Assembly: GCA_964642835.1 (NCBI GenBank)
Contig: CAZXQA010000001.1
Span: 268,831-323,386 of the forward strand
Source: an uncultured Candidatus Saccharibacteria bacterium
GTDB lineage: Bacteria > Patescibacteriota > Minisyncoccia > Phycocordibacterales > Zambryskibacteraceae
Length of the DNA: 54,556 nucleotides
Reading direction: 5' to 3'
Shown here: piece after piece, positions 1,135 through 53,734 of the stretch
Layout: each line of letters opens with the position of its first letter
Numbering within the stretch: position 1 is the stretch's first letter
Notes under the pieces: generated by a model
Told to the model about the DNA's origin: nothing
The model's input: only the letters and a program-made list of their open reading frames with translations
Databases searched by the model: none
Translations under genes and position numbers: made by a program

Positions 1135-1404
1135 ATGAAAGTCATATTACTCAAAGACGTGAAGGGGATTGGACGCCGGTTTGAAGAGAAGACAGTCTCT
1201 GACGGCTATGCCGCGAACATGCTTCTCCCGAAGGGTCTCGCCCTCGTCGCCGATAAGCAAGGGTTAGCCAAGGCTGCCCAACTCAAGGCTCAGAGCGAAG
1301 CGAAGCACGCCCGCGAAGAAGCCATCCAGCAGGAAAAAGAAAACAAGCGCCTGGAGAAGCGCTTGCAACTTGAGCAGTTCAAACAGAGCCGCTCGGCTAA
1401 ATAA
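1135..1404 (+). CDS. rplI: 50S ribosomal protein L9, N-terminal domain plus helix only (~89 aa)
   Basis: [36 protein letters not shown] matches the L9 N-domain. I place the start at ATG 1135; the ORF track begins at GTG 1117. Confidence 0.8.
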
Positions 1405-1413
1405 GGTTTCGAA

Positions 1414-1701
1414 TTAAGCCTTGACCTTCGGGGTCACATTCATGACCTTCTTCTTGGAAACGGTGTTGTCGAAGTTCACCTTACGCTTGTAGGTCATCGA
1501 GGTGATGCCATCAACGAGAGCGAAGAGGGTGTGGTCCTTGCCCATGGAGACATTCTGACCGGCCATAACGTCGGAACCACGCTGGCGAACGAGGATCGCG
1601 CCGTGCTTGGCGAAAGCGCCCGGGGTAACCTTCATGCCGAGGTACTTCGGGTTTGAATCTCTACCGTTTTTGGATACGCCTGCTGATTTCTTATGTGCCA
1701 T
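1414..1701 (-). CDS. rpmA: 50S ribosomal protein L27
   Basis: [24 protein letters not shown]...ILVRQRGS is the L27 signature. Confidence 0.95.
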
Positions 1702-1722
1702 CTTGGTCTATAATTAAGTCGT

Positions 1723-2115
1723 ATGAATATAGCAGAAACTATTAGCTTTGACAAGGAAGGGGAGGCTGCGCCAGGAGGAGCCCGGGGCCTTATCCGGAAG
1801 CTCTTCCTCTCCCTCCTCATCTGCCTCGTGGCCGCTCTTTCCTTTGGTCTTGGCCGCCTCTCAGGGCAGGGAAGAGGGGAGCCGGTGCGGGTCGAGTATG
1901 ATCCCACCCTCTCGGCAGCGGCTGCGGCCGCCTCGGCGCCTGCGCTACAGAGTAGTAACGGAGCGGTGGTAGGCTCGAAAAGCGGCTCCAAGTACCATTA
2001 CCTCACCTGTCCGGGGGCTAAACAGATCAAAGAAGCCAACAAAATCACGTTCTCGTCTAAGGAAGCCGCCGAAGCCGCTGGATACACCCTGGCAGCCAAC
2101 TGCAAGGCCCCATAA
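1723..2115 (+). CDS. membrane-anchored protein with C-terminal small Cys/His (Ada-like metal-binding type) motif
   Basis: It has an N-terminal TM helix (LFLSLLICLVAALSFGLG) and an Ala-rich linker. The C-terminal motif is KYHYLTCPG...ITFSSKEAAEAAGYTLAANC. Confidence 0.65.
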   Translation: MNIAETISFDKEGEAAPGGARGLIRKLFLSLLICLVAALSFGLGRLSGQGRGEPVRVEYDPTLSAAAAAASAPALQSSNGAVVGSKSGSKYHYLTCPGAKQIKEANKITFSSKEAAEAAGYTLAANCKAP

Positions 2116-2162
2116 ATATGGCTCAACAGAGCCATTCTATTAAACTCGACCACAAATAGTCC

Positions 2163-2191
2163 TTGACATCAAGGCTTGCATGTGATAGGAT
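2163..2191 (+). promoter_or_regulatory. sigma-70-like promoter (TTGACA-17-TAGGAT with TGn)
   Basis: TTGACA lies at 2163-2168, followed by a 17-nt spacer and TAGGAT at 2186-2191 preceded by tga. It sits ~45 nt upstream of the 2237 start. Confidence 0.6.
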
Positions 2192-2236
2192 GTATGTAAA
2201 TCAGCGAGAGCTGGTTTTTCATTTAGGAGAGCTCGG

Positions 2237-2788
2237 TTGACCCTTACCGGTCACACCGAATCCGGACACAGCCACCTAAGATTAAAAGTTTATCCCACCG
2301 TTATTCTTCAGTTATCTACCATTAGCCTTCTGATGAGCCTTTCTTCGAGTGCGATGGCCGTCATGCCTGCCGCTACCGGCACCACGACCGCTGACGCTCC
2401 GATGAAGGTGGCAATCCTCCCTAAGGAGATTGTATCCGAAGACTATCAGCCGATTACTGACCCTGACAACGTCGAGAGGTTCCTCAAGGACTACTTTGCC
2501 GATATCCCGCTCATGACGAAGATCGCCAAGTGTGAGTCCCACAACCGTCACTACGACTCCACCGGAGCAGTGCTGAAGGGTGAGAAGACCCCGCTCGACC
2601 GCGGCGTCATGCAGATCAACCTGTACTATCACGGGGAGACTGCCAAGAAGCTCGGGATAGACTTGAACACTATCGACGGTAACGTGGCCTACGCCCGCTA
2701 CCTCTATGAGAAATCAGGTGCCCAGCCTTGGATGTCCTCTTCGCCTTGTTGGTCTAAGTTCGCTTCCCCGGAGGTTGCCAAGAGGTAA
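2237..2788 (+). CDS. secreted lysozyme-like/transglycosylase-domain protein
   Basis: The TTG start lies 7 nt after AGGAG. The N-terminus is hydrophobic and signal-like. CESHNRHYD...RGVMQINLYYH resembles the catalytic region of SLT/lysozyme-like domains. Confidence 0.7.
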   Translation: MTLTGHTESGHSHLRLKVYPTVILQLSTISLLMSLSSSAMAVMPAATGTTTADAPMKVAILPKEIVSEDYQPITDPDNVERFLKDYFADIPLMTKIAKCESHNRHYDSTGAVLKGEKTPLDRGVMQINLYYHGETAKKLGIDLNTIDGNVAYARYLYEKSGAQPWMSSSPCWSKFASPEVAKR

Positions 2789-2795
2789 TCTCGAC

Positions 2796-2832
2796 ACAAA
2801 CCCCGCCCTCACCGGCGGGGTTTGTTGTATTT
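2796..2832 (+). terminator. intrinsic terminator
   Basis: The acaaaccccgcc...ggcggggtttgt hairpin is followed by tgtattt. Confidence 0.75.
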
Positions 2833-2888
2833 CAATACGAAGGGAGGTGCTACAGTATATTGAGACTCGTTTCTAGGAAAGGGGAGAT

Positions 2889-3161
2889 ATGAATTACGAT
2901 GATCTCGTTCCGACGGTACGCCGAAGCGACATCCGACCCGAATATATCTGGTCGGCGAGCGAGGTGGTGAGCAAAATCATCCCGGGCAAGCGGGTGCAGA
3001 ACAAGCAGAGTGGGCGCCACGCTCGCGTGGTCGAATTCGTCGACGATCGGAAGATTTGGGTACGCGTTGTCATGCAACGTCGCCAGAACTCTCCTCGCAA
3101 GCATCTGCGCGCCGTCAAAACTACCTGGCGGATCGAGAACATCCGACCCCTGAATCCCTAG
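2889..3161 (+). CDS. hypothetical small protein
   Basis: 90-aa ORF with a GGAG 6 nt upstream of the ATG and an intrinsic terminator directly downstream. Confidence 0.6.
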   Translation: MNYDDLVPTVRRSDIRPEYIWSASEVVSKIIPGKRVQNKQSGRHARVVEFVDDRKIWVRVVMQRRQNSPRKHLRAVKTTWRIENIRPLNP

Positions 3162-3175
3162 CGTTCCACACCTGT

Positions 3176-3210
3176 GCGCCGCAACCGATTTCTCGGTTGC
3201 GGCGCTTTTC
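3176..3210 (+). terminator. intrinsic terminator
   Basis: gcgccgcaaccga-tttc-tcggttgcggcgc (13-bp stem) is followed by ttttc. Confidence 0.8.
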
Positions 3211-3224
3211 ATTTCTATCTATAT

Positions 3225-3262
3225 AAATAAAAAGGGTCGCTCTGCGTGGAGCAAAGCGACCC
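3225..3262 (-). terminator. intrinsic terminator of the integrase gene
   Basis: On the minus strand, gggtcgct...agcgaccc is followed by tttttattt. Confidence 0.65.
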
Positions 3263-3414
3263 GCCACCCGGAAAACATTTCAGGGCATTGCGTACAAGGA
3301 AGCGTCCTTCCCCCTGAGCCGAGCAGCGGCCAACTGTTTTGCCTCGTAAGCAAGTGGGGTTTGGCCAGAACGACCCACCAGTCATTCCATAGTAAACCTG
3401 AAAGGAAAGGAGAG

Positions 3415-4383
3415 CTAGTCCTTGAGAGGATGGAAGTCCTTATGCGTCTTCTCGGCGTATTTGTCCGAGGCGTGGACGTAGCGGGTGGTCGTGTCGAGAG
3501 ACTCATGGCCCAGGAGGATCTGGATCGCAGCCGGGTTCGCGCCTTGCTCGGCTAAGTACGTGGCGAAGCCGTGACGCAGGGAGTGCGCTGAAGTCGGCAC
3601 GTTAATGCCCAGAAGCTCGCGATACTTCTTGATCTTCATCTGGAGATAGTTAGGGGAGATGTGTTTGTTCTTCTCCTTCATATTGAGACCCATTTCCGGA
3701 ATAAAGAGGTAAGGGAAGTCGTCTGCCCTCGCCTTCAAGTAATTGTCGATATGCTTCTTGGCACGCTCGGTGAGGTAGATAAAGCGCTGCTTCTTCCCCT
3801 TACCCTGGATAAAGATTCGCCCCGTCTTGTCGAGCTGAGCCCGTTTAAGATTGATGAGTTCCGAAATACGCATCCCAGAAGCAAACAACGTCTCAAGCAT
3901 GGCGCGGTTCCTGAGCGCCGTTAATTTATTTTTCTCAAACTGCATCGGAGACTCAATGAGCTTCTGGAGTTCGTTCAATTCCGCCACCTGGCCATGTTTC
4001 TTACCCATACGAAGAAGTTTTACCGAGCCAGGCACCACAGGCACGGGCTGGTCCATGTCGATGAGGTATGTGAGATAGCGTCGGAGAGAGGTGAGCGTGC
4101 GGTTAATAGAACCACTCGATAGATCTTTCTCCGCCTGCTTACCCTTCGCGGTTTTGCGGTCGCTCGAATTGAGATATGCCTTAAATTGCTCAACTGTGCG
4201 CTTCGTCATATCTTCAAACTTCATATCCACTTCCTTGCTTAAGAAATATGCCAGAGTTTCGAGATCGCGCTCATAGTTATAGAGTGTCTCCTTGGAATAA
4301 TTATTTGCCTGAATGAACAAGAGGAAATCATCGATAAGCGGCAAAGGGCCCGTGTTTTCAGAAACTTTTTTAACGTTATACAT
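3415..4383 (-). CDS. tyrosine recombinase/integrase, XerC/XerD family
   Basis: It has an N-terminal core-binding-type domain. The C-terminal catalytic box is GMRISEL...HSLRHGFATYL...LGHESLDTTTRYVH (R..H-x-x-R..Y). Confidence 0.9.
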   Translation of the reverse strand: MYNVKKVSENTGPLPLIDDFLLFIQANNYSKETLYNYERDLETLAYFLSKEVDMKFEDMTKRTVEQFKAYLNSSDRKTAKGKQAEKDLSSGSINRTLTSLRRYLTYLIDMDQPVPVVPGSVKLLRMGKKHGQVAELNELQKLIESPMQFEKNKLTALRNRAMLETLFASGMRISELINLKRAQLDKTGRIFIQGKGKKQRFIYLTERAKKHIDNYLKARADDFPYLFIPEMGLNMKEKNKHISPNYLQMKIKKYRELLGINVPTSAHSLRHGFATYLAEQGANPAAIQILLGHESLDTTTRYVHASDKYAEKTHKDFHPLKD

Positions 4384-26471: not shown

Positions 26472-28375
26472 TACTTCGTCTCCGCGTCTTTGATGTCAGG
26501 ATTTTCTTCCGGCTTCTGTTCAGGAGCTGCGGCGTCGGCAGGAGCCGCTTGCTGATTTTTGCTCATCCACTCACCAATCTTCTGCATCTCAGTCGAGAGG
26601 GCTTCGGTCGCGGACTTCAAGGATTCAATGGTGCCTCCATCCTTCTCTTTCTTCAGTGCATCGATCTTACCCTGCACAGCAGTCTTAATATCTTCCGGAA
26701 GCGTCGGGGCATCCTTCAAGGACTTCTCGGCCGTGTAGGTGAGCTGCTCGGCCATATTGCGAGCATCAACTAAGTCCTTCTTCTTCGCATCTTCGCCGGC
26801 GTTCGCTTCAGCATCCTTCTGCATCTTCTCGATCTCATCCTTCGAGAGACCTGAGGAAGCTTCGATACGGATACTCTGTTCCTTGTTTGTCGTCTTGTCC
26901 TTGGCTTTCACATTGAGGATGCCGTTCGCGTCGACGTCGAAGGTCACTTCGACTTGCGGCATACCGCGTGGAGCCGGTGGGATACCATCGAGGATGAAGC
27001 GGCCCAAGGACTTGTTGTCCGAGGCCATAGCGCGTTCACCTTGGACGATGTGGATCTCGACAGACGTCTGGTTGTCGGCGGCGGTCGAGAAGACTTGCGA
27101 CTTCGCGGAAGGAATCGTCGTGTTCTTTTCAATAAGCTTCGTTGCCACACCTCCCATCGTCTCAATACCAAGAGAGAGCGGGATAACGTCGAGGAGGAGA
27201 ACGTCCTTCACGTCACCAGCGAGAATACCACCCTGAATCGCGGCGCCGAGGGCCACCACTTCGTCGGGGTTAATACTCTTGTTTGGCTCCTTACCGAAGA
27301 AGGCCTTGGCTGCTTCGACGAGAGCGGGCATGCGAGTCTGACCACCGACGAGAATGACTTCGTCGATATCTCCCACCTTAAAGGGCGAAGCTTCCATGGC
27401 GCGCTTCGTGATTTCCATGGCGCGGTCAACGAACTCACGCGAGAGTTCCTCGAGCTTGGCACGGGTCATCTTCATGAGAAGGTGACGCGGACCAGAGGCG
27501 TCGGAAGTGATAAATGGGATATTGATCTCGGTCTCCGTTGCAGTAGAGAGCTCAATCTTTGCCTTCTCGGCGGCCTCATCCAAGCGCTGGAGGGCCAAGG
27601 CGTCGGAGCGCACGTCGATACCGGACTCCTTCTTAAATTCTTCCGCAATATAGTTCAGGATTTTCTGGTCGATATCCTTACCACCCAAGTGGGAGTCGCC
27701 GTCGGTCGACTTCACTTCGACAACATCATCACCCACTTCGAGGATCGAGACGTCGAAGGTTCCGCCACCGAAGTCGAAAACCGCGATCTTCTCGTTCTTC
27801 TTCTTATTAAAGCCATACGCGAGCGCGGCGGCCGTCGGCTCGTTGATGATGCGGAGCACTTCGAGGCCGGCGATTTGGCCAGCGTCCTTCGTCGCCTGGC
27901 GCTGCGAGTCGTTGAAGTAAGCCGGTACGGTGATGATGGCCTGAGTGACCTTCTCACCAAGACGAGCTTCGGCGTCGGCCTTCAACTTCTGGAGAATCAT
28001 GGCGGAAATTTCTTCCGGGCGATACTCCTTCTCCCCCATTCTTACTAAAACCCCTTCCCCGCCTGCTCCCGAACTATCGTGAGGGCGGGCAGGCTTCATC
28101 TCATACGGCACCGTCACCTTGTCCTTCTGCACGGCCGGGTCAGAGAAGGTGTGGCCGATGAAGCGTTTGATGCCGAAGACGGTGTTCTTCGGATTCGTCA
28201 CTGCCTGACGCTTAGAGAGAAGACCCACGAGTCGCTCACCCGTCTTTGAAACCGCGACAATAGAAGGCGTTGTGCGAGCGCCTTCCGCGTTCTCCAAGAT
28301 CTTCGGAGCGCCGGCTTCCATAACCGCCACTGCCGAGTTCGTCGTGCCCAAGTCGATACCGATGATTTTTGCCAT
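26471..28375 (-). CDS. dnaK: molecular chaperone DnaK (Hsp70)
   Basis: [26 protein letters not shown] and [11 protein letters not shown] are Hsp70 signatures. Confidence 0.97.
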
Positions 28376-45997: not shown

Positions 45998-47008
45998 TTA
46001 AACAAGGAACTCAATCACATCCCCATCTTGGACGACATACTCCTTCCCTTCCGTTCTCACCCAGCCCTTAGACTTCGCGGCGGCGTAGGAGCCGGCTTCG
46101 AGGAGCTTGTCGCAGGCAATCACTTCCGCGCGGATGAAACGAGCTTCGAAGTCGGTGTGGATTGAGCGGCCGGCATACGGCGCCTTGGCATCACGCTTCG
46201 TCGTCCAGGCACGTGTCTCGGCTTCGCCTGTCGTCAGGAAGGTGATGAGGTCGAGAAGTTTGTAGCTCTCCGTAATTAAATTATCCAAGCCCTCGCCGAA
46301 GACCGGATCGAGCTTCACATACGGTCCGGGGATCTTCGAAGCAATCTCGTCCGCCAAGTTCTCTGCCGCGGCAGAGGTGTTCAATATATAGAGCATCGGC
46401 TTCATGGTAAGGAGGTGAAGGTTGCCGACGAGTTTCTTCTCTTCCTCGGTGAGCACTGCTTCGTTCGCGAGCTTCCCTTCCTTGAGCAGAGCTTCCACTT
46501 TCTGAAGAGCGGCTTCTTCGGCGGCCGCTTCCTTCTTGCCGGTCTTCGCTTCACGAGCGACACCGCCCAAGCGCTTAGAGACCGTTTCCATATCGGCAAG
46601 AATAAGTTCGAGGTTAATGACCGCGATGTCTGAGAGTGGGTCTACCGTGCCAGCCACGTGGATGACGTCATCGTCGCGGAAGGTGCGAACCATGTGCGCG
46701 ATGGCATCTACTTCGCGGATGTTCTGGAGGAATTTATTGCCCAGACCTTCTCCCTCGGAAGCACCCTTCACGAGACCGGCAATGTCGACGAATTCGACCA
46801 CCGCGGGGACCGTCTTCTTCGACTGACTCATGGCGGAGAGTTTCTCCAAGCGCTCGTCAGGCACCGGGACGATACCGACGGAAGGATCGATCGTACAGAA
46901 GGGGTAATTCTCGGCCGGAACGCTCTTCTTGGTGAGCGTATTAAAGAGCGTGGACTTCCCCACGTTCGGCAGACCGACAATGCCGATACTTAGTGCAGAA
47001 TAAGACAT
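45998..47008 (-). CDS. ychF: redox-regulated/ribosome-binding ATPase YchF
   Basis: [19 protein letters not shown] is the G1 motif. The protein continues [14 protein letters not shown] and ends with a TGS-like C-terminus (DGDVIEF). Confidence 0.92.
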
Positions 47009-47054
47009 TACCTTCGTTGATTATTGGTATATAACCAGTGACTTTTAATTCCTT

Positions 47055-47297
47055 TTGATTACCTACGACCTTTTCAACAGTGTTCAATACTATCTCCCGT
47101 TTCTCACTAAAACTCAAGTTCGAAAGTGGGACACCCTCAAGGTCTTACTGATGGTGCTGTGGGAAACAAAGGGTATTGATAATAAAAAATATGTTGCCTT
47201 ATCTGTGCCAATGGAAGAAGTTGGAAAAATGCTTGGAGGATGGAACGGGCAGGTCGCTTCAAAACAAAACTCTCTGCCCTTGAGCAGAGAGAAATGA
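47055..47297 (+). CDS. Avd-like four-helix-bundle protein, apparently N-terminally short (80 aa)
   Basis: The C-terminal TKGIDNKKYVALSVPMEEVGKMLGGW matches, from memory, the conserved ...IDNKKY...EIGKMLGGW end of DGR accessory (Avd)/four-helix-bundle proteins. An in-frame TAA at 47046 prevents upstream extension. Confidence 0.5.
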   Translation: MITYDLFNSVQYYLPFLTKTQVRKWDTLKVLLMVLWETKGIDNKKYVALSVPMEEVGKMLGGWNGQVASKQNSLPLSREK

Positions 47298-47303
47298 AGA
47301 GAG

Positions 47304-47437
47304 TTGCGAAGCGAGGAACACGAAACCGTTCTCACGATTCCACCTGTTGTCAGCGTTGCCGTTGTAGGCGTTCAGCCAGCGACCATTGTCGTTGCGATTG
47401 ATGCCGAGAACGTTCGGGTTGCCGTCCGAATCGGTTT
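47304..47437 (-). repeat. DGR template repeat (TR), sense on minus strand
   Basis: It aligns gap-free to 47785-47918. All 22 core mismatches are T on the + strand here, which is A on the - strand. In the VR frame it reads 11 Asn codons (8 AAC, 3 AAT). Confidence 0.85.
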
Positions 47438-47692
47438 GTATAAAGCACCTTCAGTGCCATTGCCCACAAGAGAGCCTCCGCGCTCAATCCACAGGTTGTA
47501 TCGAATTCCGCATCGTAATGCGATAGTGCTCTATACCAAGTATCTTCATTTTTTTGAAGTGTCTGCATACACCACCCTACCCTTGTCCTTAGACAAGGAT
47601 AATCTCGATGCATGGATACTGGGGTCGGTAGCGGGGAACCTTAATCCCCCACATATTCACCTACTGCCATTGCAGATTATATCAAAACGAAA

Positions 47693-47723
47693 GGCCCGGA
47701 CACCCATTTTTGGATGCCGGGCC
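47693..47723 (-). terminator. intrinsic terminator of the DGR target gene
   Basis: On the minus strand, the ggcccggcatcc-aaaaat-gggtgtccgggcc hairpin is followed by tttcgtttt. Confidence 0.65.
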
Positions 47724-47778
47724 CGAAGGGCAAAGGTCAAAGGATCTGAAGAAGATCCAAGTGACCAAGTCCTAAGTA

Positions 47779-48453
47779 CTAGTCTTGCGGGACGAGGAAC
47801 ACGAAACCGAGCTCACGACCCCACCTGTCGTCAGCGAAGCCGCTGCAGGCGCTCAGCCAGCGACCACGGCCGTCGCGATCGATGCCGAGAACGTCCGGGC
47901 CGCCGCCCGAACCGGTGATGGGCTCGTGCATGACGATGAGCCACCACAAACCCATCGCTTCGAGATCGTCGTCGGAGACCATCTCCCGGAGGAGCGGTGC
48001 GACTTCGACCGGAGGCGTCAGGTATCCGCGCTTCTTGGCTTCCTCGCGGATCTTCGAGGTGAGGCGATCGTTGTCTTCGAACTCGTCGCCCTTGATCACG
48101 ACCAGCTTGTACGTCTTGCCGTTGGTGGAGACGAACTTGTCGCTCCGGAGCAACTGCTTGGCGTAGTCGCCGACGTTGTAGTTGGCGGTCGTGAGCGATT
48201 CGATGAACTGCTCGCCGGTGCGGCCGTCCGTGGTCACGTGCCGAACGATCATGTTGCTGATCATCTCGACGCGCTTGCGGAAGACCGAGTAGAGCTCCGG
48301 CCAGATGTCGTTGTTGCCGAGCACCTGCTGGACTGCGTCCGTCGGAAGCTCCGCGCGGAAGCGCTTGAGAATCGAACGGAACAGCTCTCCGGCCTTGTCG
48401 ATCTGGCCGTCGGTCATCTGCGTATCCACGGATGGGGTCACGGTCTTTGCCAT
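47779..48453 (-). CDS. DGR variable (target) protein, 224 aa, VR at extreme C-terminus
   Basis: AAAGGAGG lies 8 nt upstream of the ATG. The gene is GC-rich. The last ~45 codons are the VR. No signal peptide or TM segment is visible. Confidence 0.85.
   Translation of the reverse strand: MAKTVTPSVDTQMTDGQIDKAGELFRSILKRFRAELPTDAVQQVLGNNDIWPELYSVFRKRVEMISNMIVRHVTTDGRTGEQFIESLTTANYNVGDYAKQLLRSDKFVSTNGKTYKLVVIKGDEFEDNDRLTSKIREEAKKRGYLTPPVEVAPLLREMVSDDDLEAMGLWWLIVMHEPITGSGGGPDVLGIDRDGRGRWLSACSGFADDRWGRELGFVFLVPQD
47785..47918 (-). repeat. DGR variable repeat (VR)
   Basis: It is the counterpart of TR at an offset of 481 nt. Substitutions occur only opposite TR adenines, except for 3 nt at the 3' end (47790-47792, IMH-like). 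Confidence 0.85.
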
Positions 48454-48493
48454 GGCGTCATCCTCCTTTGAGGTGAGCTAGACCACCGGAATG

Positions 48494-48545
48494 GTAGTCA
48501 TAGCCAGAAAGTACCGAGAGTTCGGAGCCTTTTGGCTATGACTAC
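48494..48545 (-). promoter_or_regulatory. 12-bp perfect-stem hairpin in the predicted 5' UTR of the DGR target gene
   Basis: gtagtcatagcc (48494-48505) pairs with ggctatgactac (48534-48545) around a 28-nt loop. The loop contains a smaller ccga/tcgg stem. Confidence 0.5.
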
Positions 48546-48578
48546 ACGCAAGAATAAGTAAAAGAACTAGCTAGGTTA

Positions 48579-48607
48579 AGCATAGCACCTTTGGCGTGTT
48601 TTGTCAA
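48579..48607 (-). promoter_or_regulatory. sigma-70-like promoter for the DGR target gene (TTGACA-17-TATGCT on minus strand)
   Basis: The reverse complement of 48602-48607 is TTGACA and that of 48579-48584 is TATGCT, with a 17-nt spacer. Confidence 0.55.
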
Positions 48608-49021
48608 GTTCATGAATTTCCAAAAAATTTTATAGGATATGGGGAAATTAAATTTCCTTTTGAAATCTGGGGGTATGGGGGTGGGTATCTGAAAATTAGA
48701 TCTTTATGGCTTACTTATACTAACGTCCCGTATAAAGGATACCGGGGGTGAGTTCGGGGGGGGTGTATGCCCCTTACCCCTGAAAACTATAGTGTGCGCC
48801 CCTGTGGGGTAAATAGGAGCTATCTGATAGGCACTACCCAGCGAGGAGGAGGGAGTTTGATAGTGAATGAGAACGGAATGACCTTAGGGCTATGTTCTTT
48901 TGTGTTCAGGCCATGCCAACAGACAATTTGGACATGGGGTTAGAATAGCGGAAAATTGCAATAAGGTACATGTGTGGTACATTTTCGGCAGAATTTGTAC
49001 CTACAACCAAGGGGGGTTAAC

Positions 49022-50296
49022 ATGTCTGACGCGTACCAGGAACTCAAGGACCGCGGCTTCATCAGGCAAGAAACGGCACCGGTGGATGTGCGCCATCTGG
49101 GCACTCACGAGCTCATCGAAACGCTTTCAGCGGAGAAAAGGCTCAAGAGCGGCCAGACGACGTTCTACGTCGGCTTCGATCCGACCTCGGACAGCCTTCA
49201 CGTCGGAAGCCTCATGCCCATCATGGCCATGATGCATCTCCAGCGCGCTGGACACATTCCGATCTGCATCATCGGCGGGGGCACGGCTCTCATCGGAGAT
49301 CCGAGCGGCAAGACGCAGATGCGGCAGATGCTCTCGGAAGAAGATATCGCTTCGAACGGCCGGGGCATCCTGGCACAGCTCGAGCAGTATCTCTCTTTCG
49401 AAAACGGCTCAGGCGTCTTCGTCAATAACGCCGAGTGGCTCACGAAGCTCAATTACATCGAGTTTCTGCGCGACATCGGCAAACACTTCCGCGTCAACGA
49501 AATGTTGCGCATGGAAGCATACAAGGCGCGGCTCGAACGCAATGAGGGACTTTCCTTCATCGAGTTCAACTACCAGCTCCTGCAGGCCTACGACTTTCTC
49601 GTCCTTTTCGAGAAGTACGGCTGCACGATCCAGATGGGCGGCGACGACCAGTGGGGCAATATCCTCGCCGGCATCGATCTCATCCGGAAAGTAAGGCAGA
49701 GTGCATCGCACGGCCTCACCTTTCCTCTTCTCACTACGGCCAGCGGCCAGAAGATGGGTAAGACCGAGACGGGCGCCGTCTGGCTCGATGCAGCGAAGAC
49801 CTCGCCGTACGAGTACTATCAGTTCTGGATCAACACGGACGACCGGGATGTGGAGAGATTCCTCAAATTCTTCACCTTCCTGCCGCTCGGAAACATTGCT
49901 GATCTCTGCGCTGAAGGAGGCAGCCTCTTGCGCCATGCGAAAGAGGTCCTCGCCTTCGAAGCCACGCAGATCACGCACGGTTACGACGCAGCCGTAGAAG
50001 CACGGGAATCTTCCGAACGCCTCTTCGCCTCCGGCGGAAGCGGTGCGGCGAATGTCCCCTCGCTCTCGCTCACCAAAAGCGAAGCGGATCTTCTGAAACT
50101 CACCGAGATCCTCGTGCGGACCGGCCTCAGCTCGTCGAAGTCGGAAGCCACCAAGCTCATCAAGAGCGGCGGCGTCTCCGTCGACAACGTAAAGGTCACG
50201 GACGAGAAAGTTTTCCTCTCAGAATTTCTGAAAGAGAAATCTTCGCTCCTCCTGAGGAAAGGCAAGAAAACCTACCACAGAGTCGATGTGGAATGA
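49022..50296 (+). CDS. tyrS: tyrosine--tRNA ligase
   Basis: The ATG at 49022 follows AAGGGGGG. GFDPTSDSLHVGSL is the HIGH-type motif and KMGKTE is the KMSKS-type motif. A C-terminal S4-like domain is present. The ORF track's GTG at 48974 is less likely. Confidence 0.93.
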   Translation: MSDAYQELKDRGFIRQETAPVDVRHLGTHELIETLSAEKRLKSGQTTFYVGFDPTSDSLHVGSLMPIMAMMHLQRAGHIPICIIGGGTALIGDPSGKTQMRQMLSEEDIASNGRGILAQLEQYLSFENGSGVFVNNAEWLTKLNYIEFLRDIGKHFRVNEMLRMEAYKARLERNEGLSFIEFNYQLLQAYDFLVLFEKYGCTIQMGGDDQWGNILAGIDLIRKVRQSASHGLTFPLLTTASGQKMGKTETGAVWLDAAKTSPYEYYQFWINTDDRDVERFLKFFTFLPLGNIADLCAEGGSLLRHAKEVLAFEATQITHGYDAAVEARESSERLFASGGSGAANVPSLSLTKSEADLLKLTEILVRTGLSSSKSEATKLIKSGGVSVDNVKVTDEKVFLSEFLKEKSSLLLRKGKKTYHRVDVE

Positions 50297-50309
50297 TGTG
50301 AAATCGTAC

Positions 50310-50339
50310 AAGTGCATGGCTCCAGCCATGCACTTTTTA
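50310..50339 (+). terminator. intrinsic terminator
   Basis: aagtgcatggct/agccatgcactt is followed by ttttaa. Confidence 0.8.
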
Positions 50340-50425
50340 ATACATTGACACTCGCCTGATAAAACATTACTCTTTCAGCAGAAAGTAACGCTCCAAGACA
50401 TTTTCACTGAGACGTAAGGAGGCCC

Positions 50426-50965
50426 ATGAAGACTCTTATGCTACTTGCCGGGTTGCCGGGGGTTGGCAAGTCAACCATCTCCCGCCATCTCCGAGAAAAA
50501 ATCAAAGACGCGCGCGTGATCGACATCGACGTCTTCAAAGCGATGATCGTCGACCCCACCCTTATTGGCGATCAAGTCGATCCGCCGGAAATCCGCTGGG
50601 CGTGCTACCAACTCGCCCTGAACACGGCCTTCGGACTCTTCGAATATGGACTGACCTCAACCGTAATCATGGACGAAGTCTTCCATCTCGCCTCTTTGCG
50701 ATGCAAGGTCGAGAAGCTCTGCGCCGAGCGCGGGGTCAACGTCCTCTGGGTTGAAGTGCGGTCTCCACACCACGTGGTAAAAGAGCGCCTTCAGCAACGA
50801 AAGGGGCACATCCTCTCCCCGGAAGAGGCTCTGAATATTCATCAGATGTTCAGAGAGATCTTCGAGAAATTTCCAGACGCTCACCCAGGCTATATCGCCG
50901 TCGAGAACGACGGCAGGGATGTCGGCACTCTCGTCGACGACATCATGGAGAAACGAGCGGTCTAG
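50426..50965 (+). CDS. P-loop kinase/AAA_33-type ATP-binding protein
   Basis: MLLAGLPGVGKSTIS is the Walker A motif. The small size is typical of zeta-toxin/gluconate-kinase-like NTP-binding proteins. Confidence 0.75.
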   Translation: MKTLMLLAGLPGVGKSTISRHLREKIKDARVIDIDVFKAMIVDPTLIGDQVDPPEIRWACYQLALNTAFGLFEYGLTSTVIMDEVFHLASLRCKVEKLCAERGVNVLWVEVRSPHHVVKERLQQRKGHILSPEEALNIHQMFREIFEKFPDAHPGYIAVENDGRDVGTLVDDIMEKRAV

Positions 50966-50985
50966 AAATAGCGAAACAAGCCTCA

Positions 50986-51024
50986 AGACTGGTTCCGGCG
51001 CAAGCCGAAACCAGTCTGTTTTTA
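50986..51024 (+). terminator. intrinsic terminator
   Basis: agactggtt...aaccagtct, with an inner cggc/gccg stem, is followed by gttttta. Confidence 0.75.
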
Positions 51025-51036
51025 TAAGCAAAACCA

Positions 51037-51843
51037 TTGTGTTATAGTGGCGGCACAAATATGATGAAGCAAAGGGTCATCAACCAGAGCCTCCTCCAGG
51101 CGGCGGCGGCCGCCGGAAAAATTCTGCGCTCCGCTTTTGAGAAAGGTGTGACCCAAGAAATGAGTAAGGGTGCAGGCGGATCCTACTACGACGTCGTCTC
51201 CAAAGCCGACCTCCAGGCCGAGAAAGCGATTCTCAAAATCCTCAAGAAGAACCTCCCCGGTATTAATATATTAAGCGAAGAAACCGGCCTCACAGACCGT
51301 GGTTCGATGGACACTATCATCGTCGATCCGCTCGACGGCACGAGCAACTTCCTCCTCGGCATTCCCCACTTCTCCGTCGCCCTTGCGCACGTCAGGAACG
51401 GCGAAGTCATCGCCTCCGCAGTCTACAATCCTGTCCTGAAGAAAATGTACTTTGCAGAAAAGAGTAAAGGAACCTTTATCAACAAGAAGAAGCAGAAGCG
51501 TTCTCCCAACATCTCCCTCTCTTACGTCGCCATTAACTTCAGCCACCAGGATACGTGGCCGAAGAAAGGCACTAAGTTTAACTCCCTCTACAAACAAGGC
51601 ACCAAGCGCGTGCTCAACAACTGGTCTCCCAACCTCGACTTCTGCCTCCTCGCTGAGGGCAAGATTGATGCCGTTATCTCAAGCGGGAGTCTTATCTTCG
51701 ACTTTGCCCCGGGCCTTCTCATTGCCACAGAAGCCGGATACGGGCACTATCCTGAGAACGTACGTATTGGCAACACAATCGACGGCACCGCGAAGCTTGT
51801 CACCGGGCCGAAGGGTTCTTTCCTAAAAGCCTTACTCAAATAG
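51037..51843 (+). CDS. inositol monophosphatase family protein (SuhB-like)
   Basis: ILSEE...IVDPLDGTSNF is the metal-binding motif, with a C-terminal WD-type region. The true start is probably ATG 51061 or 51064. Confidence 0.85.
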   Translation: MCYSGGTNMMKQRVINQSLLQAAAAAGKILRSAFEKGVTQEMSKGAGGSYYDVVSKADLQAEKAILKILKKNLPGINILSEETGLTDRGSMDTIIVDPLDGTSNFLLGIPHFSVALAHVRNGEVIASAVYNPVLKKMYFAEKSKGTFINKKKQKRSPNISLSYVAINFSHQDTWPKKGTKFNSLYKQGTKRVLNNWSPNLDFCLLAEGKIDAVISSGSLIFDFAPGLLIATEAGYGHYPENVRIGNTIDGTAKLVTGPKGSFLKALLK

Positions 51844-51845
51844 TT

Positions 51846-52724
51846 ATGAAAAACATATTAGCGGGCGACAAGAAGAAGGAATACGCATCCCTCTTCGGTC
51901 TCTTGTATTGCTCGATCATCCTCGGCACACACTACATCGTGACGAAGCAGGTCTCCGCCTCCGTTGATGCACCCACTCTCACCGCCTATCGTTTCCTTAT
52001 CGCCGCACTTCCTTTGTTCGGATATTTGATCTATAAGAAGAAAGATCCTTTCGCAAACTTTAAGCCCGGAGCAATCCTGGGCTTTTTTCTATGGCTCGTC
52101 TTCATCATGATCAGCCTCGGTCTCGAGTACACGTCGGCGACAAACACGGGGTTCATCAGCGGCATCTTCTTCGTCTTCGTACCTTTCGTCGATTATCTGA
52201 TATTCAAAAAGAGACTCCAGCTATTCAACCTGCCGATCATTACCCTCTCTCTCGGCGGACTCTATCTGCTGACAGGCGGTCTCACCCACTTAAGCATGGG
52301 TGACATCCTCATCTTTCTTTCCGCGATCTGTACTGCGGTACACCTCTTGCTTGTCGGGTATTATTCGAAACAAGAACTTGATCCTGTCCTCGCCTGCTTC
52401 CAGCAATTCATCATGGTGTTTCTTCTCAGTATTCTCTTCGCCTTTGCCAGAGGAGGATTCCACCCGCTTATCCCCCCGGCGCAAATTGCTCCGCTTCTCT
52501 TCCTCGGACTTCTGGCTACCTTCTCGGTCTTCTTCGTCCAAATGCTTTCTTTGAAACGCGCTTCGGGCACGCACGGCGCCGTACTCTTATCGCTCCAGCC
52601 GGGCTTCGCGGCTTTCTTCGCTTACTGGCTCGGAGGAGAGAAGTTTTCCGGCCTCCAACTTACGGGCGGCTTACTCCTCTTCGTCTCTGCAATTATCTAC
52701 TCCATCTTCGCGAAGAAAAACTAA
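51846..52724 (+). CDS. EamA/DMT family transporter
   Basis: Ten predicted TM helices are arranged in two EamA-like halves. Confidence 0.8.
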   Translation: MKNILAGDKKKEYASLFGLLYCSIILGTHYIVTKQVSASVDAPTLTAYRFLIAALPLFGYLIYKKKDPFANFKPGAILGFFLWLVFIMISLGLEYTSATNTGFISGIFFVFVPFVDYLIFKKRLQLFNLPIITLSLGGLYLLTGGLTHLSMGDILIFLSAICTAVHLLLVGYYSKQELDPVLACFQQFIMVFLLSILFAFARGGFHPLIPPAQIAPLLFLGLLATFSVFFVQMLSLKRASGTHGAVLLSLQPGFAAFFAYWLGGEKFSGLQLTGGLLLFVSAIIYSIFAKKN

Positions 52725-53734
52725 AGGAGATTATCCGTCTCGTGGAAGAGTTTCTCGGTCTCGGAAGCAATGCGGACCATGGCTTCGACAGATTCGAGAG
52801 GATACTTACCGTTCGCGCTCTCATCCGAGAGCATGACTGCGTCAGCGCCGTCAAGGACAGCGTTTGCGACGTCAGAGACTTCGGCGCGGGTCGGCTGCTT
52901 GTTCTCCATCATCGAGAGGAGCATCTGGGTCGCGACAATCGCGCCCTTGTTGTGCCAGTGGGCCACGCGGATAAGATGCTTCTGGACGAAAGGCACCTTC
53001 TCCATTGGGAGCTCCACTCCTAAGTCACCGCGAGCGACCATAATCGAGTCCGTCGCGCGGATAATTTCATCGATATTTCTTAACGCTTGCGCGCTCTCGA
53101 TCTTCGCGACGATGCGAGCGCGGCCACGAACGATCTCTTGCACCGCTTTAATATCTTCCGCCGTCTGCACAAAGGAAACGGCGACATAGTCGACGCCTTG
53201 CGCGAGGCCGAATTCCAAATCCTTCAAATCTTTTGGTGTAAGGCCGCCGAAGTTTAAGTGAGTCTCAGGCACGTTTACCCCCTTTCTCGAGAAGAGCATC
53301 CCGCCACGCACAACTTCCGCTTCGAAGTCAGCACCCTCGATCTTGGTCACCACCAGCTCCATATCACCAGAGGCAAGGAACAGTCGATGCCCCGCCGCGA
53401 GCGACTGCATGAGAATAGCCTGGTCGATAAAGATCTTACCCTCAGCTTCACCGGCTGTCGTGAACACAACCTTCTCGCCCTTATGAAGCTCCCTTCCTTC
53501 CTTAGGCAATGTGCCGACGCGAATACGCGGGCCTTGAAGGTCTTGCAGAATAGAAACTTTCTTTCCTTGTTTGGCTGCTTCTTCGCGGATAATGGTGACG
53601 CGATTTTTAAATTCCTCTTCCGTGCAGTGTGAGAAGTTCATACGGGCGATGTCGAGCCCTGCTCTAATCAGTTTGGCCAGTGTGTCCCTATCCTCGGACT
53701 TCGGTCCGATGGTGGCAATGATTTTGGTCTTCAT
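52721..53734 (-). CDS. pyk: pyruvate kinase, A+B domains only (337 aa)
   Basis: KTKIIATIGP, ARMNFSH, MVARGDLGVE and ATQMLLSM are present. The protein ends about where the C-terminal regulatory domain would begin. Confidence 0.88.
   Translation of the reverse strand: MKTKIIATIGPKSEDRDTLAKLIRAGLDIARMNFSHCTEEEFKNRVTIIREEAAKQGKKVSILQDLQGPRIRVGTLPKEGRELHKGEKVVFTTAGEAEGKIFIDQAILMQSLAAGHRLFLASGDMELVVTKIEGADFEAEVVRGGMLFSRKGVNVPETHLNFGGLTPKDLKDLEFGLAQGVDYVAVSFVQTAEDIKAVQEIVRGRARIVAKIESAQALRNIDEIIRATDSIMVARGDLGVELPMEKVPFVQKHLIRVAHWHNKGAIVATQMLLSMMENKQPTRAEVSDVANAVLDGADAVMLSDESANGKYPLESVEAMVRIASETEKLFHETDNLL

Follow-up and report, generated by a model that had tools for sequence, protein, structure and literature searches.

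Diversity-generating retroelements (DGRs) of the CPR were reportedly treated by Paul et al. in 2017. Within the Patescibacteria, a cellular and mostly aquatic "DGR clade 2" that is restricted to this group has been described (Roux et al. 2021, PMC8144416). The prototype of the DGRs, by contrast, is the phage-borne element of BPP-1, with the order mtd-avd-TR-brt. It transfers sequence in an A-specific manner from a template repeat (TR) to a variable repeat (VR) at the 3' end of a target gene; inverted repeats stand just after its VR, it has an Avd accessory protein, and its TR is bracketed by a duplex and closely followed by a stem-loop (PMC6182149; bioRxiv 10.1101/2023.10.23.563531). Handa et al. 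(bioRxiv 10.1101/2023.10.23.563531) describe the RNA elements of DGRs more generally, those of the CPR included: a "cPRT Stop" duplex pairs sequence from upstream of the TR with sequence from downstream of it, and an Avd-binding stem-loop, commonly of 9 bp with a tetraloop, lies just downstream of the TR. Conserved RNA motifs associated with RTs (RT-1 to RT-19) were reported by Weinberg et al. 2017 (PMC5737381), RT-10 being the one found in the BPP-1 DGR, and Wu et al. 2018 (PMC5758913) described DGRs whose target genes are multiple or remote.

Here we analyse a DGR locus in a stretch of Patescibacteria DNA of 54,556 nucleotides (54.5 kb; "the window" in what follows, in whose positions all coordinates are given). 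Like other DGRs of the Patescibacteria/CPR, the locus lies on a Parcubacteria-type housekeeping fragment (leuS, tyrS, alaS, dnaK, ychF), and it has a small target with a C-terminal VR, an AAY-rich TR, and relatives that encode Avd and an RT with the I/LGxxxSQ motif; unlike them, the copy in the window has no RT, and its avd is truncated. Judged only by their taxonomy, the related loci probably belong to DGR clade 2 of Roux et al. (PMC8144416). With the BPP-1 element the locus shares the A-specific transfer from TR to VR, the position of the VR at the target 3' end, the inverted repeats just after the VR, the Avd protein, and the duplex and stem-loop around the TR. It differs from that prototype in several respects: avd and the TR are on opposite strands, tail to tail; in place of the ~140-nt spacer 3' of the TR in BPP-1 there is a leader of ~230 nt 5' of the TR and ~45 nt 3' of it, and nothing in the BPP-1 RNA corresponds to this large 5' leader; the repeat contains no conserved IMH/IMH* difference; and the element is chromosomal, with a target in which no C-type lectin sequence signature is recognised.

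We hold it likely that the locus is a well-preserved remnant of a Patescibacteria (CPR) DGR, in which the target gene, the VR, the TR and the whole TR-RNA gene persist and from which the RT and part of avd were recently deleted. The system is a known one, from a known Patescibacteria DGR group, and is not a new kind of element, nor presumably a working one.

Template and variable repeats

The features of the locus are listed in Table 1. An earlier note, made from the sequence of the window alone, had read two repeats as the TR and VR of a DGR, and exact pairwise realignment confirms its description of them: the copies form a gapless alignment with a shift of 481 nt, in which 25 of 134 nt are mismatched. 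At 22 of these the plus strand of the TR reads T (hence A on the minus strand), and the plus strand of the VR reads C at 15, A at 4 and G at 3. The remaining three mismatches are adjacent to each other (47309-47311, AAG vs GGA). In the 126-nt core there are 33 template positions with A on the minus strand, 22 changed and 11 kept, and there is not one mismatch at a non-A template position; the probability that all 22 core mismatches would fall at template A is 9.4e-17 (hypergeometric).

Table 1. Features of the DGR locus, in window coordinates
Feature	Position	Strand	Basis or remark
Promoter-like site, TTGACA-17-TATGCT with TG, 5' of target gene	48579..48607	-	Consensus match only
Target gene, 224-aa protein	47779..48453	-	ORF; last ~45 codons are the VR
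Variable repeat (VR)	47785..47918	-	Upper copy, 3' end of target gene
Short inverted repeat AGTAC-TTA-GGACT, directly 3' of VR	47768-47780	-	Fold; alignment by eye
Larger hairpin around GGATCT-TCTTC-AGATCC, 3' of VR	47735-47766	-	RNA fold
Terminator-like hairpin of target gene, GCCCGG...CCGGGC then CTTTCGTTTTG	47684..47722	-	Read from sequence
TATAAT box, ~8 nt 5' of conserved leader start	47676..47681	-	Candidate TR-RNA promoter
Structured TR-RNA leader, ~230 nt	47438..47668	-	RNAalifold covariation, nhmmer
Leader strand of long-range duplex, AAAUGAAGA	47543..47551	-	Otherwise unpaired; complementary to 47292-47300
Template repeat (TR)	47304..47437	-	Non-coding lower copy; repeat alignment
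Tail strand of the same TR-bracketing duplex, UCUUCAUUU	47292..47300	-	3 nt after TR
Stem-loop, 9-bp stem and tetraloop, CTCTCTGCT-CAAG-GGCAGAGAG then TTTTGTTTTG	47260..47291	-	Compensatory stem changes across loci
avd 3' remnant, last ~57-64 of 117 codons	47097..47294	+	Inside mechanical ORF 47055..47297
Deletion junction	47009..47124	.	Homology to intact relatives ends at ~47122-47124

Translated in the frame of the VR, the TR reads QTDSDGNPNVLGINRNDNGRWLNAYNGNADNRWNRENGFVFL, with 11 Asn codons (8 AAC, 3 AAT), and A stands at codon position 1 or 2 in 21 of its 44 codons. The VR recodes every one of the 11 Asn codons (to G, D, D, D, R, S, S, F, D, G and L), exactly the residues that had been given in the earlier note, whose placement of the upper copy at the end of the minus-strand target ORF is likewise correct. 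The frame of the TR is closed upstream, stop codons preceding the TR in the VR frame, and a repeat search across the 54.5 kb of the window found the TR/VR pair to be its sole long repeat.

The comparison of siblings, which had been proposed with the expectation that variation would gather at positions facing template adenines, bore this out. When the VRs of eight close target homologues (71-90% identical overall) were compared codon by codon with that of the window, differences were found at 11-14 of the 21 A-templated codons (those with A at position 1 or 2) vs 0-2 of the 23 other VR codons. Over residues 1-178 of the protein, 6-14% of residues differ in seven of the eight homologues, and 30% in the most distant (P0009). 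Because the mismatches are confined to template adenines and the homologues vary at exactly the A-templated codons, the two repeats are the TR and VR of a DGR. This much of the earlier reading stands, with RT-bearing relatives in its favour as well; as a whole DGR the element is incomplete, being without an RT and with only part of avd.

An alternative without any retroelement, in which the 3' end of the gene was simply duplicated and the copies diverged, draws on nothing beyond the existence of a repeat, and we give it practically no credence: mismatches restricted to one base of one copy (P ~1e-16), a template rich in AAY codons, and hypervariability of siblings at templated positions only all argue against it, as do the avd remnant at the locus and the RT in its relatives. 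The TR of the window is also 95% identical to the TR of a related locus, L003, and where these two TRs differ at non-A bases the VR of the window matches the TR of the window. Since the VR thus has its own template's non-A bases, homing occurred in this lineage after its split from L003.

The three non-adenine differences at 47309-47311 had been taken in the earlier note for the IMH/IMH* distinction, a reading that the relatives contradict: in L003, L053, L005 and L045 the TR and VR are identical through the matching stretch, up to the end of homology. In this region the window VR has the family sequence GTCCCGCAA and the window TR has GCTTCGCAA. As the VR of the window keeps the family sequence and the TR of the relatives equals their VR, the difference is a change in the TR that is specific to the window, and on these alignments it does not appear to be a conserved, directionality-setting feature. 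The changed bases may perhaps lie 3' of the point at which cDNA starts, and would hence never have been transferred to the VR.

On the other side of the VR boundary, the short inverted repeat of the window corresponds to a perfect stem in relatives and may represent the DGR hairpin that is expected downstream of a VR. Relatives also have hairpins at the position matching the terminator-like hairpin of the target gene.

Related loci and their common layout

Relatives were drawn from contigs encoding target homologues and from 36 metagenome loci retrieved with a full-length Avd as the query. About 40 related loci have one layout: target, terminator, ~230-nt leader, TR, short stem-loop tail, avd and RT, with avd (~117 codons) facing the TR tail to tail from the other strand, and the RT on the strand of the target, diverging from avd. 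The succession of target, leader, TR, avd and RT is seen, for example, in L005, L006, L007, L047 and L049-L051; in nearly all of the 36 loci found by Avd there is an RT beside avd, and the related loci with an RT number ~35. The RTs of the relatives carry LGNLTSQ and RYADDF motifs, a combination that we take to be the signature of DGR RTs.

Closest to the window is L053, from a Hainich groundwater assembly, whose target is 90% identical to that of the window. Its contig has the leader, the TR and a full-length avd, and ends 19 codons into the RT.

An apparently intact TR-RNA gene

At the place of the TATAAT box of the window, relatives have AT-rich boxes resembling TATAAT or TATACT before the leader. 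We derived a consensus structure for the leader from an alignment of 18 leaders with RNAalifold. It comprises 52 base pairs, 38 of which have compensatory changes, and 96.8% of the alignment cells at these positions are paired. Shuffling the columns lowers this figure to 80%, and in 500 shuffles the observed values were not attained once, whichever measure is taken; controls in which the partner was slid are 36-46% paired. The leader of the window breaks one of the 52 pairs, which is within the range of RT-bearing loci, and scores 186.6 bits against an nhmmer profile, within the range of intact loci. Like the RT-1 to RT-19 motifs (PMC5737381), the leader is a conserved structured RNA tied to a DGR-type RT locus; unlike them, it precedes the TR, on its 5' side, instead of standing between TR and RT, and it has no match in Rfam 15, of which no family matches the window, with none at E up to 5 in 46900-48700.

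A stretch of the leader and a stretch of the tail can form a 9-bp duplex that would bracket the TR. Across loci its pairs change together (G-C to A-U, U-A to C-G, A-U to U-A), and forcing it in the 407-nt TR RNA, which spans 47262-47668 on the minus strand, costs 0.6 kcal/mol. The pairs were counted by anchoring on the TTTCTC motif, since in MAFFT alignments of leader plus tail the tails were out of register, and a few loci are mis-anchored in this count; support for the duplex from these comparisons is moderate.

The stem-loop that follows in the tail has compensatory changes in its stem across loci and a U-run after the stem, and it overlaps the last avd codons on the opposite strand. The third codon positions of avd show low variation across loci only in codons 106-117. 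By analogy with the elements described by Handa et al. (bioRxiv 10.1101/2023.10.23.563531), which the duplex and the stem-loop match, the two would have the same roles here, and the stem-loop is a candidate Avd-binding element, TR-RNA terminator, or both. All components of the TR-RNA gene, that is, the promoter-like box, the leader, the TR, the bracketing duplex and the hairpin, thus appear to be intact in the window.

Missing RT and truncated avd

An RT was searched for in the whole 54.5-kb window in three ways and none was found: by a six-frame motif scan, by tblastn with three family RTs, and by an HMM of 30 family RTs against six-frame ORFs (best E = 0.56). A weak tblastn match at 27224-27436 was rejected, as it lies in dnaK. 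The best HMM match is to a minus-strand ORF at the junction (46944-47144), over the LGNLTSQ-YIRY region; this ORF was considered as an RT remnant and the match was treated as chance, for it is partly the antisense of the avd remnant and the ORF has no nucleotide homology to any family RT.

What is left of avd is its 3' part. The remnant covers only positions 65-104 of the 107 in the Pfam profile bAvd (PF22296), at 23.8 bits vs a cut-off of 40, and in tblastn the full-length Avd of L003 matches the window over residues 54-117 only, true identity beginning at RKWDTLKV, residue 61. On its other side the remnant adjoins ychF (45998..47008, with the start codon at 47008), and the 88 nt between the two (47009-47096) have no homology to any of the loci fetched. 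Homology between the window and L053 ends at 47122, and that with L003 and L008 breaks off there too. A deletion junction common to the window and to two syntenic relatives in which ychF directly follows the target, L001 and L044, was considered and rejected, the intergenic sequences failing to align.

The missing RT might be an artefact of assembly, in which a DGR-bearing strain was joined to a strain of the L001/L044 type, with the target abutting ychF. Relatives both with and without the element do exist, and metagenome contigs often break at TR/VR repeats, as in L052, which ends at the VR; the junction in the window, however, lies inside avd and not at a repeat, with no shared sequence there that could mislead an assembler, and the 88 nt next to ychF are unlike those of L001 and L044. 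The same kind of truncation, moreover, is found with different neighbours in an independent MAG contig, L045, and we regard an artefact as very improbable.

Probable recent deletion and piecemeal decay

Over 45 codons the avd remnant differs from the avd of L008 by 20 nt, of which 18 belong to synonymous codon changes, and a single amino acid is altered; the same comparison gives 22/6 with L053 and 27/6 with L003. As the divergence is mostly synonymous, it arose while avd was under selection as a protein, and the truncation is then recent, because the truncated piece cannot form the four-helix bundle of Avd. By this comparison, the truncation of avd is recent relative to the divergence of the strains compared. 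A recent loss of the RT explains the absence of non-A mismatches between TR and VR with no need of present activity.

Other loci of the group show different stages of incompleteness. In L008 an IS481-like transposase stands exactly in the place of the RT, L023 and L024 have RT fragments only, and in the syntenic relatives L001 and L044 the diversified target is directly followed by ychF, the TR, avd and RT having been lost. L045, on a MAG contig independent of the window and with different neighbouring genes, has a truncation like that of the window and no RT: its avd is cut ~5 codons from the breakpoint of the window, its 12 TR/VR mismatches are all at adenines, and the same RNA elements are kept. 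Decay of the element thus appears, from these loci, to be common in this group of Patescibacteria. Loci with a diversified VR and with no TR or RT within reach (L001, L044, L004 and L048) resemble the DGRs with remote targets (Wu et al. 2018, PMC5758913); unlike those, the window keeps its own TR, and a TR separated from its RT is outside the usual description.

The cassette might still be active if the RT-Avd of a second DGR, encoded elsewhere in the genome, used its complete TR RNA in trans. The 126-nt core is free of non-A mismatches, as would be expected of such activity, but the near-purely synonymous divergence of the avd remnant points to a recent deletion, which suffices to account for the clean pattern. 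In the window the leader, duplex and stem-loop are all intact, and the RT-less L045 likewise has mismatches at A sites only and has kept these elements; the close syntenic L001 and L044, however, have lost the TR altogether, which argues that the locus is decaying in this lineage. Multi-target DGRs are documented (PMC5758913) and the group includes a case of two complete DGRs on a single contig (L016 and L018), yet more than one DGR occurs in only ~10% of DGR-bearing complete genomes (PMC5758913). Our view of this genome is one of 54.5 kb, and in these 54.5 kb there is no second RT, avd or leader. On balance we consider activity in trans unlikely.

It is also quite doubtful that RT-less cassettes of this kind, composed of a target, a TR-RNA gene and an avd stub, are "satellites" kept by selection and served in trans by the RT-Avd of another DGR. 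In that case several templates would share one diversifying enzyme pair, and the window and L045 would exemplify this independently of each other. The retention of nearly the same piece of avd by these two loci could hint at selection rather than accident. A constraint on RNA as the reason for the shared 3' half of avd was rejected, third positions varying freely in codons 56-105.

Proposed history and significance

Under the reading that we prefer, a recently disabled DGR, the history of the locus would be as follows. In the intact element, the TR RNA would have consisted of the leader, the TR and the stem-loop tail; a complex of Avd and RT, encoded just downstream, would have copied this RNA into cDNA, misincorporating opposite template adenines; and the cDNA would have replaced the VR, recoding AAY (Asn) codons at the C-terminus of the 224-aa target protein. 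One recent deletion would then have taken the RT gene and approximately the first 60 codons of avd, with a breakpoint at ~47097-47124, beside ychF. The 22 A-only mismatches would be the record of past retrohoming, and the locus is presumably inactive at present, being unable to diversify unless an RT-Avd pair were supplied from elsewhere in the genome.

Programs that find DGRs start from the RT gene, and a locus such as this is invisible to them, even though its target carries a VR made by retrohoming. The losses seen in this Patescibacteria group are piecemeal and frequent (an RT replaced by an IS, RT fragments, truncation of avd, disappearance of all but the VR), which bears on how long DGR-diversified proteins remain open to diversification where genomes are reduced. 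A further product of the comparison is a compact and self-contained TR-RNA gene with a large leader, strong covariation and no Rfam family, offering DGR biochemists a second, differently organised RNA beside the model from the Bordetella phage.

The target protein

The target belongs to a widespread protein family that has no assigned fold or function. It has 181 detectable homologues, and those that are named come from Parcubacteria and Patescibacteria MAGs. Pfam holds no family for the target protein or for 83 members of its family, a sequence search of the PDB gave no match to the protein, and inspection by eye found no obvious signal peptide or membrane segment in it. With its AlphaFold model as the query, Foldseek returned nothing with E below 0.5 from the PDB and BFVD; the best matches to C-type lectins are weak (1egg and 1egi, TM 0.42-0.44, E 1.3-3.3). 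The model itself has a confident core at residues ~67-224, with pLDDT above 90, and the VR is predicted to occupy its last three or four strands. At a single Asn-templated position of the VR, up to six different residues are found among the homologues.

Cassettes and loci lacking the reverse transcriptase

Absence of the reverse transcriptase (RT) is found repeatedly among the relatives of the window, in several different forms. An independent RT-less cassette is carried by locus L045 of Parcubacteria SURF_31 and consists of a target gene, leader, template repeat (TR) and an avd reduced to codons ~55-111, after which unrelated genes follow; its avd breakpoint and that of the window are at most about 5 codons apart, and all 12 of its mismatches between TR and variable repeat (VR) fall at adenines. 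In L008, an IS481-like (rve) transposase gene occupies the exact place of the RT, diverging from an intact avd, and in comparison with the RT-bearing locus L039 homology begins at the avd start codon. Two more loci, L023 and L024, are further cases of RT decay, each with a full avd adjoining an RT reduced to fragments. In L001 and L044, which are syntenic with the window at a nucleotide identity of 80-90%, no TR, avd or RT lies between the diversified target gene and ychF; by base tabulation, the L001 VR equals the family TR save at adenines and two other bases.

Within the window, the best match to a profile built from 30 RTs of related loci was a stop-to-stop open reading frame (ORF) at the deletion junction, matching over the LGNLTSQ-YIRY region. 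We judged this candidate RT remnant to be a chance match: it is non-significant (E = 0.56), the avd remnant, read in antisense, accounts for part of it, and the ORF has no DNA homology to the family RTs.

Features of the window and related loci
Feature	Locus (contig)	Positions	Strand
RT-less cassette	L045 (QZJU01000003.1)	2389-2949	
IS481-like transposase gene	L008 (Ga0209542_10073358)	2692-3576	
Target gene, then ychF directly	L001 (JAHZTO010017933.1)	1360-3155	
Target gene, then ychF directly	L044 (CAZBQU010000007.1)	3-1690	
Junction ORF	window	46944-47144	minus
Leader RNA	window	47438-47668	minus
Partial second leader	L011	2906-3019	
tyrS, AAA_33 kinase, inositol monophosphatase, 292-aa membrane protein	window	48974-52724	+
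Pyruvate kinase	window	52721-53734	
Beta-lactamase2-family gene	window	45084-45950	

Gene neighbourhood

The neighbourhood of the diversity-generating retroelement (DGR) is undergoing quick rearrangement. Between pyruvate kinase and the target the window carries four genes in excess of the related loci L001 and L003, and a fifth extra gene, of the Beta-lactamase2 family, lies between ychF and leuS.

Leader RNA and multiple elements

The structured leader RNA (~230 nt, 5' of the TR), which has strong covariation support and no matching family in Rfam 15, is common to all 40+ loci of the window's Avd/RT family, including every DGR locus among L003-L053. Contig Ga0155673_103 carries two complete DGRs of this family (L016 and L018), ~60 kb apart; some genomes of the group therefore hold at least two RT-Avd pairs. 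Another locus, L011, has a second, partial leader copy in addition to the complete one; the two are ~1.3 kb apart, and the partial copy has the TR on one side and a target-like gene on the other.
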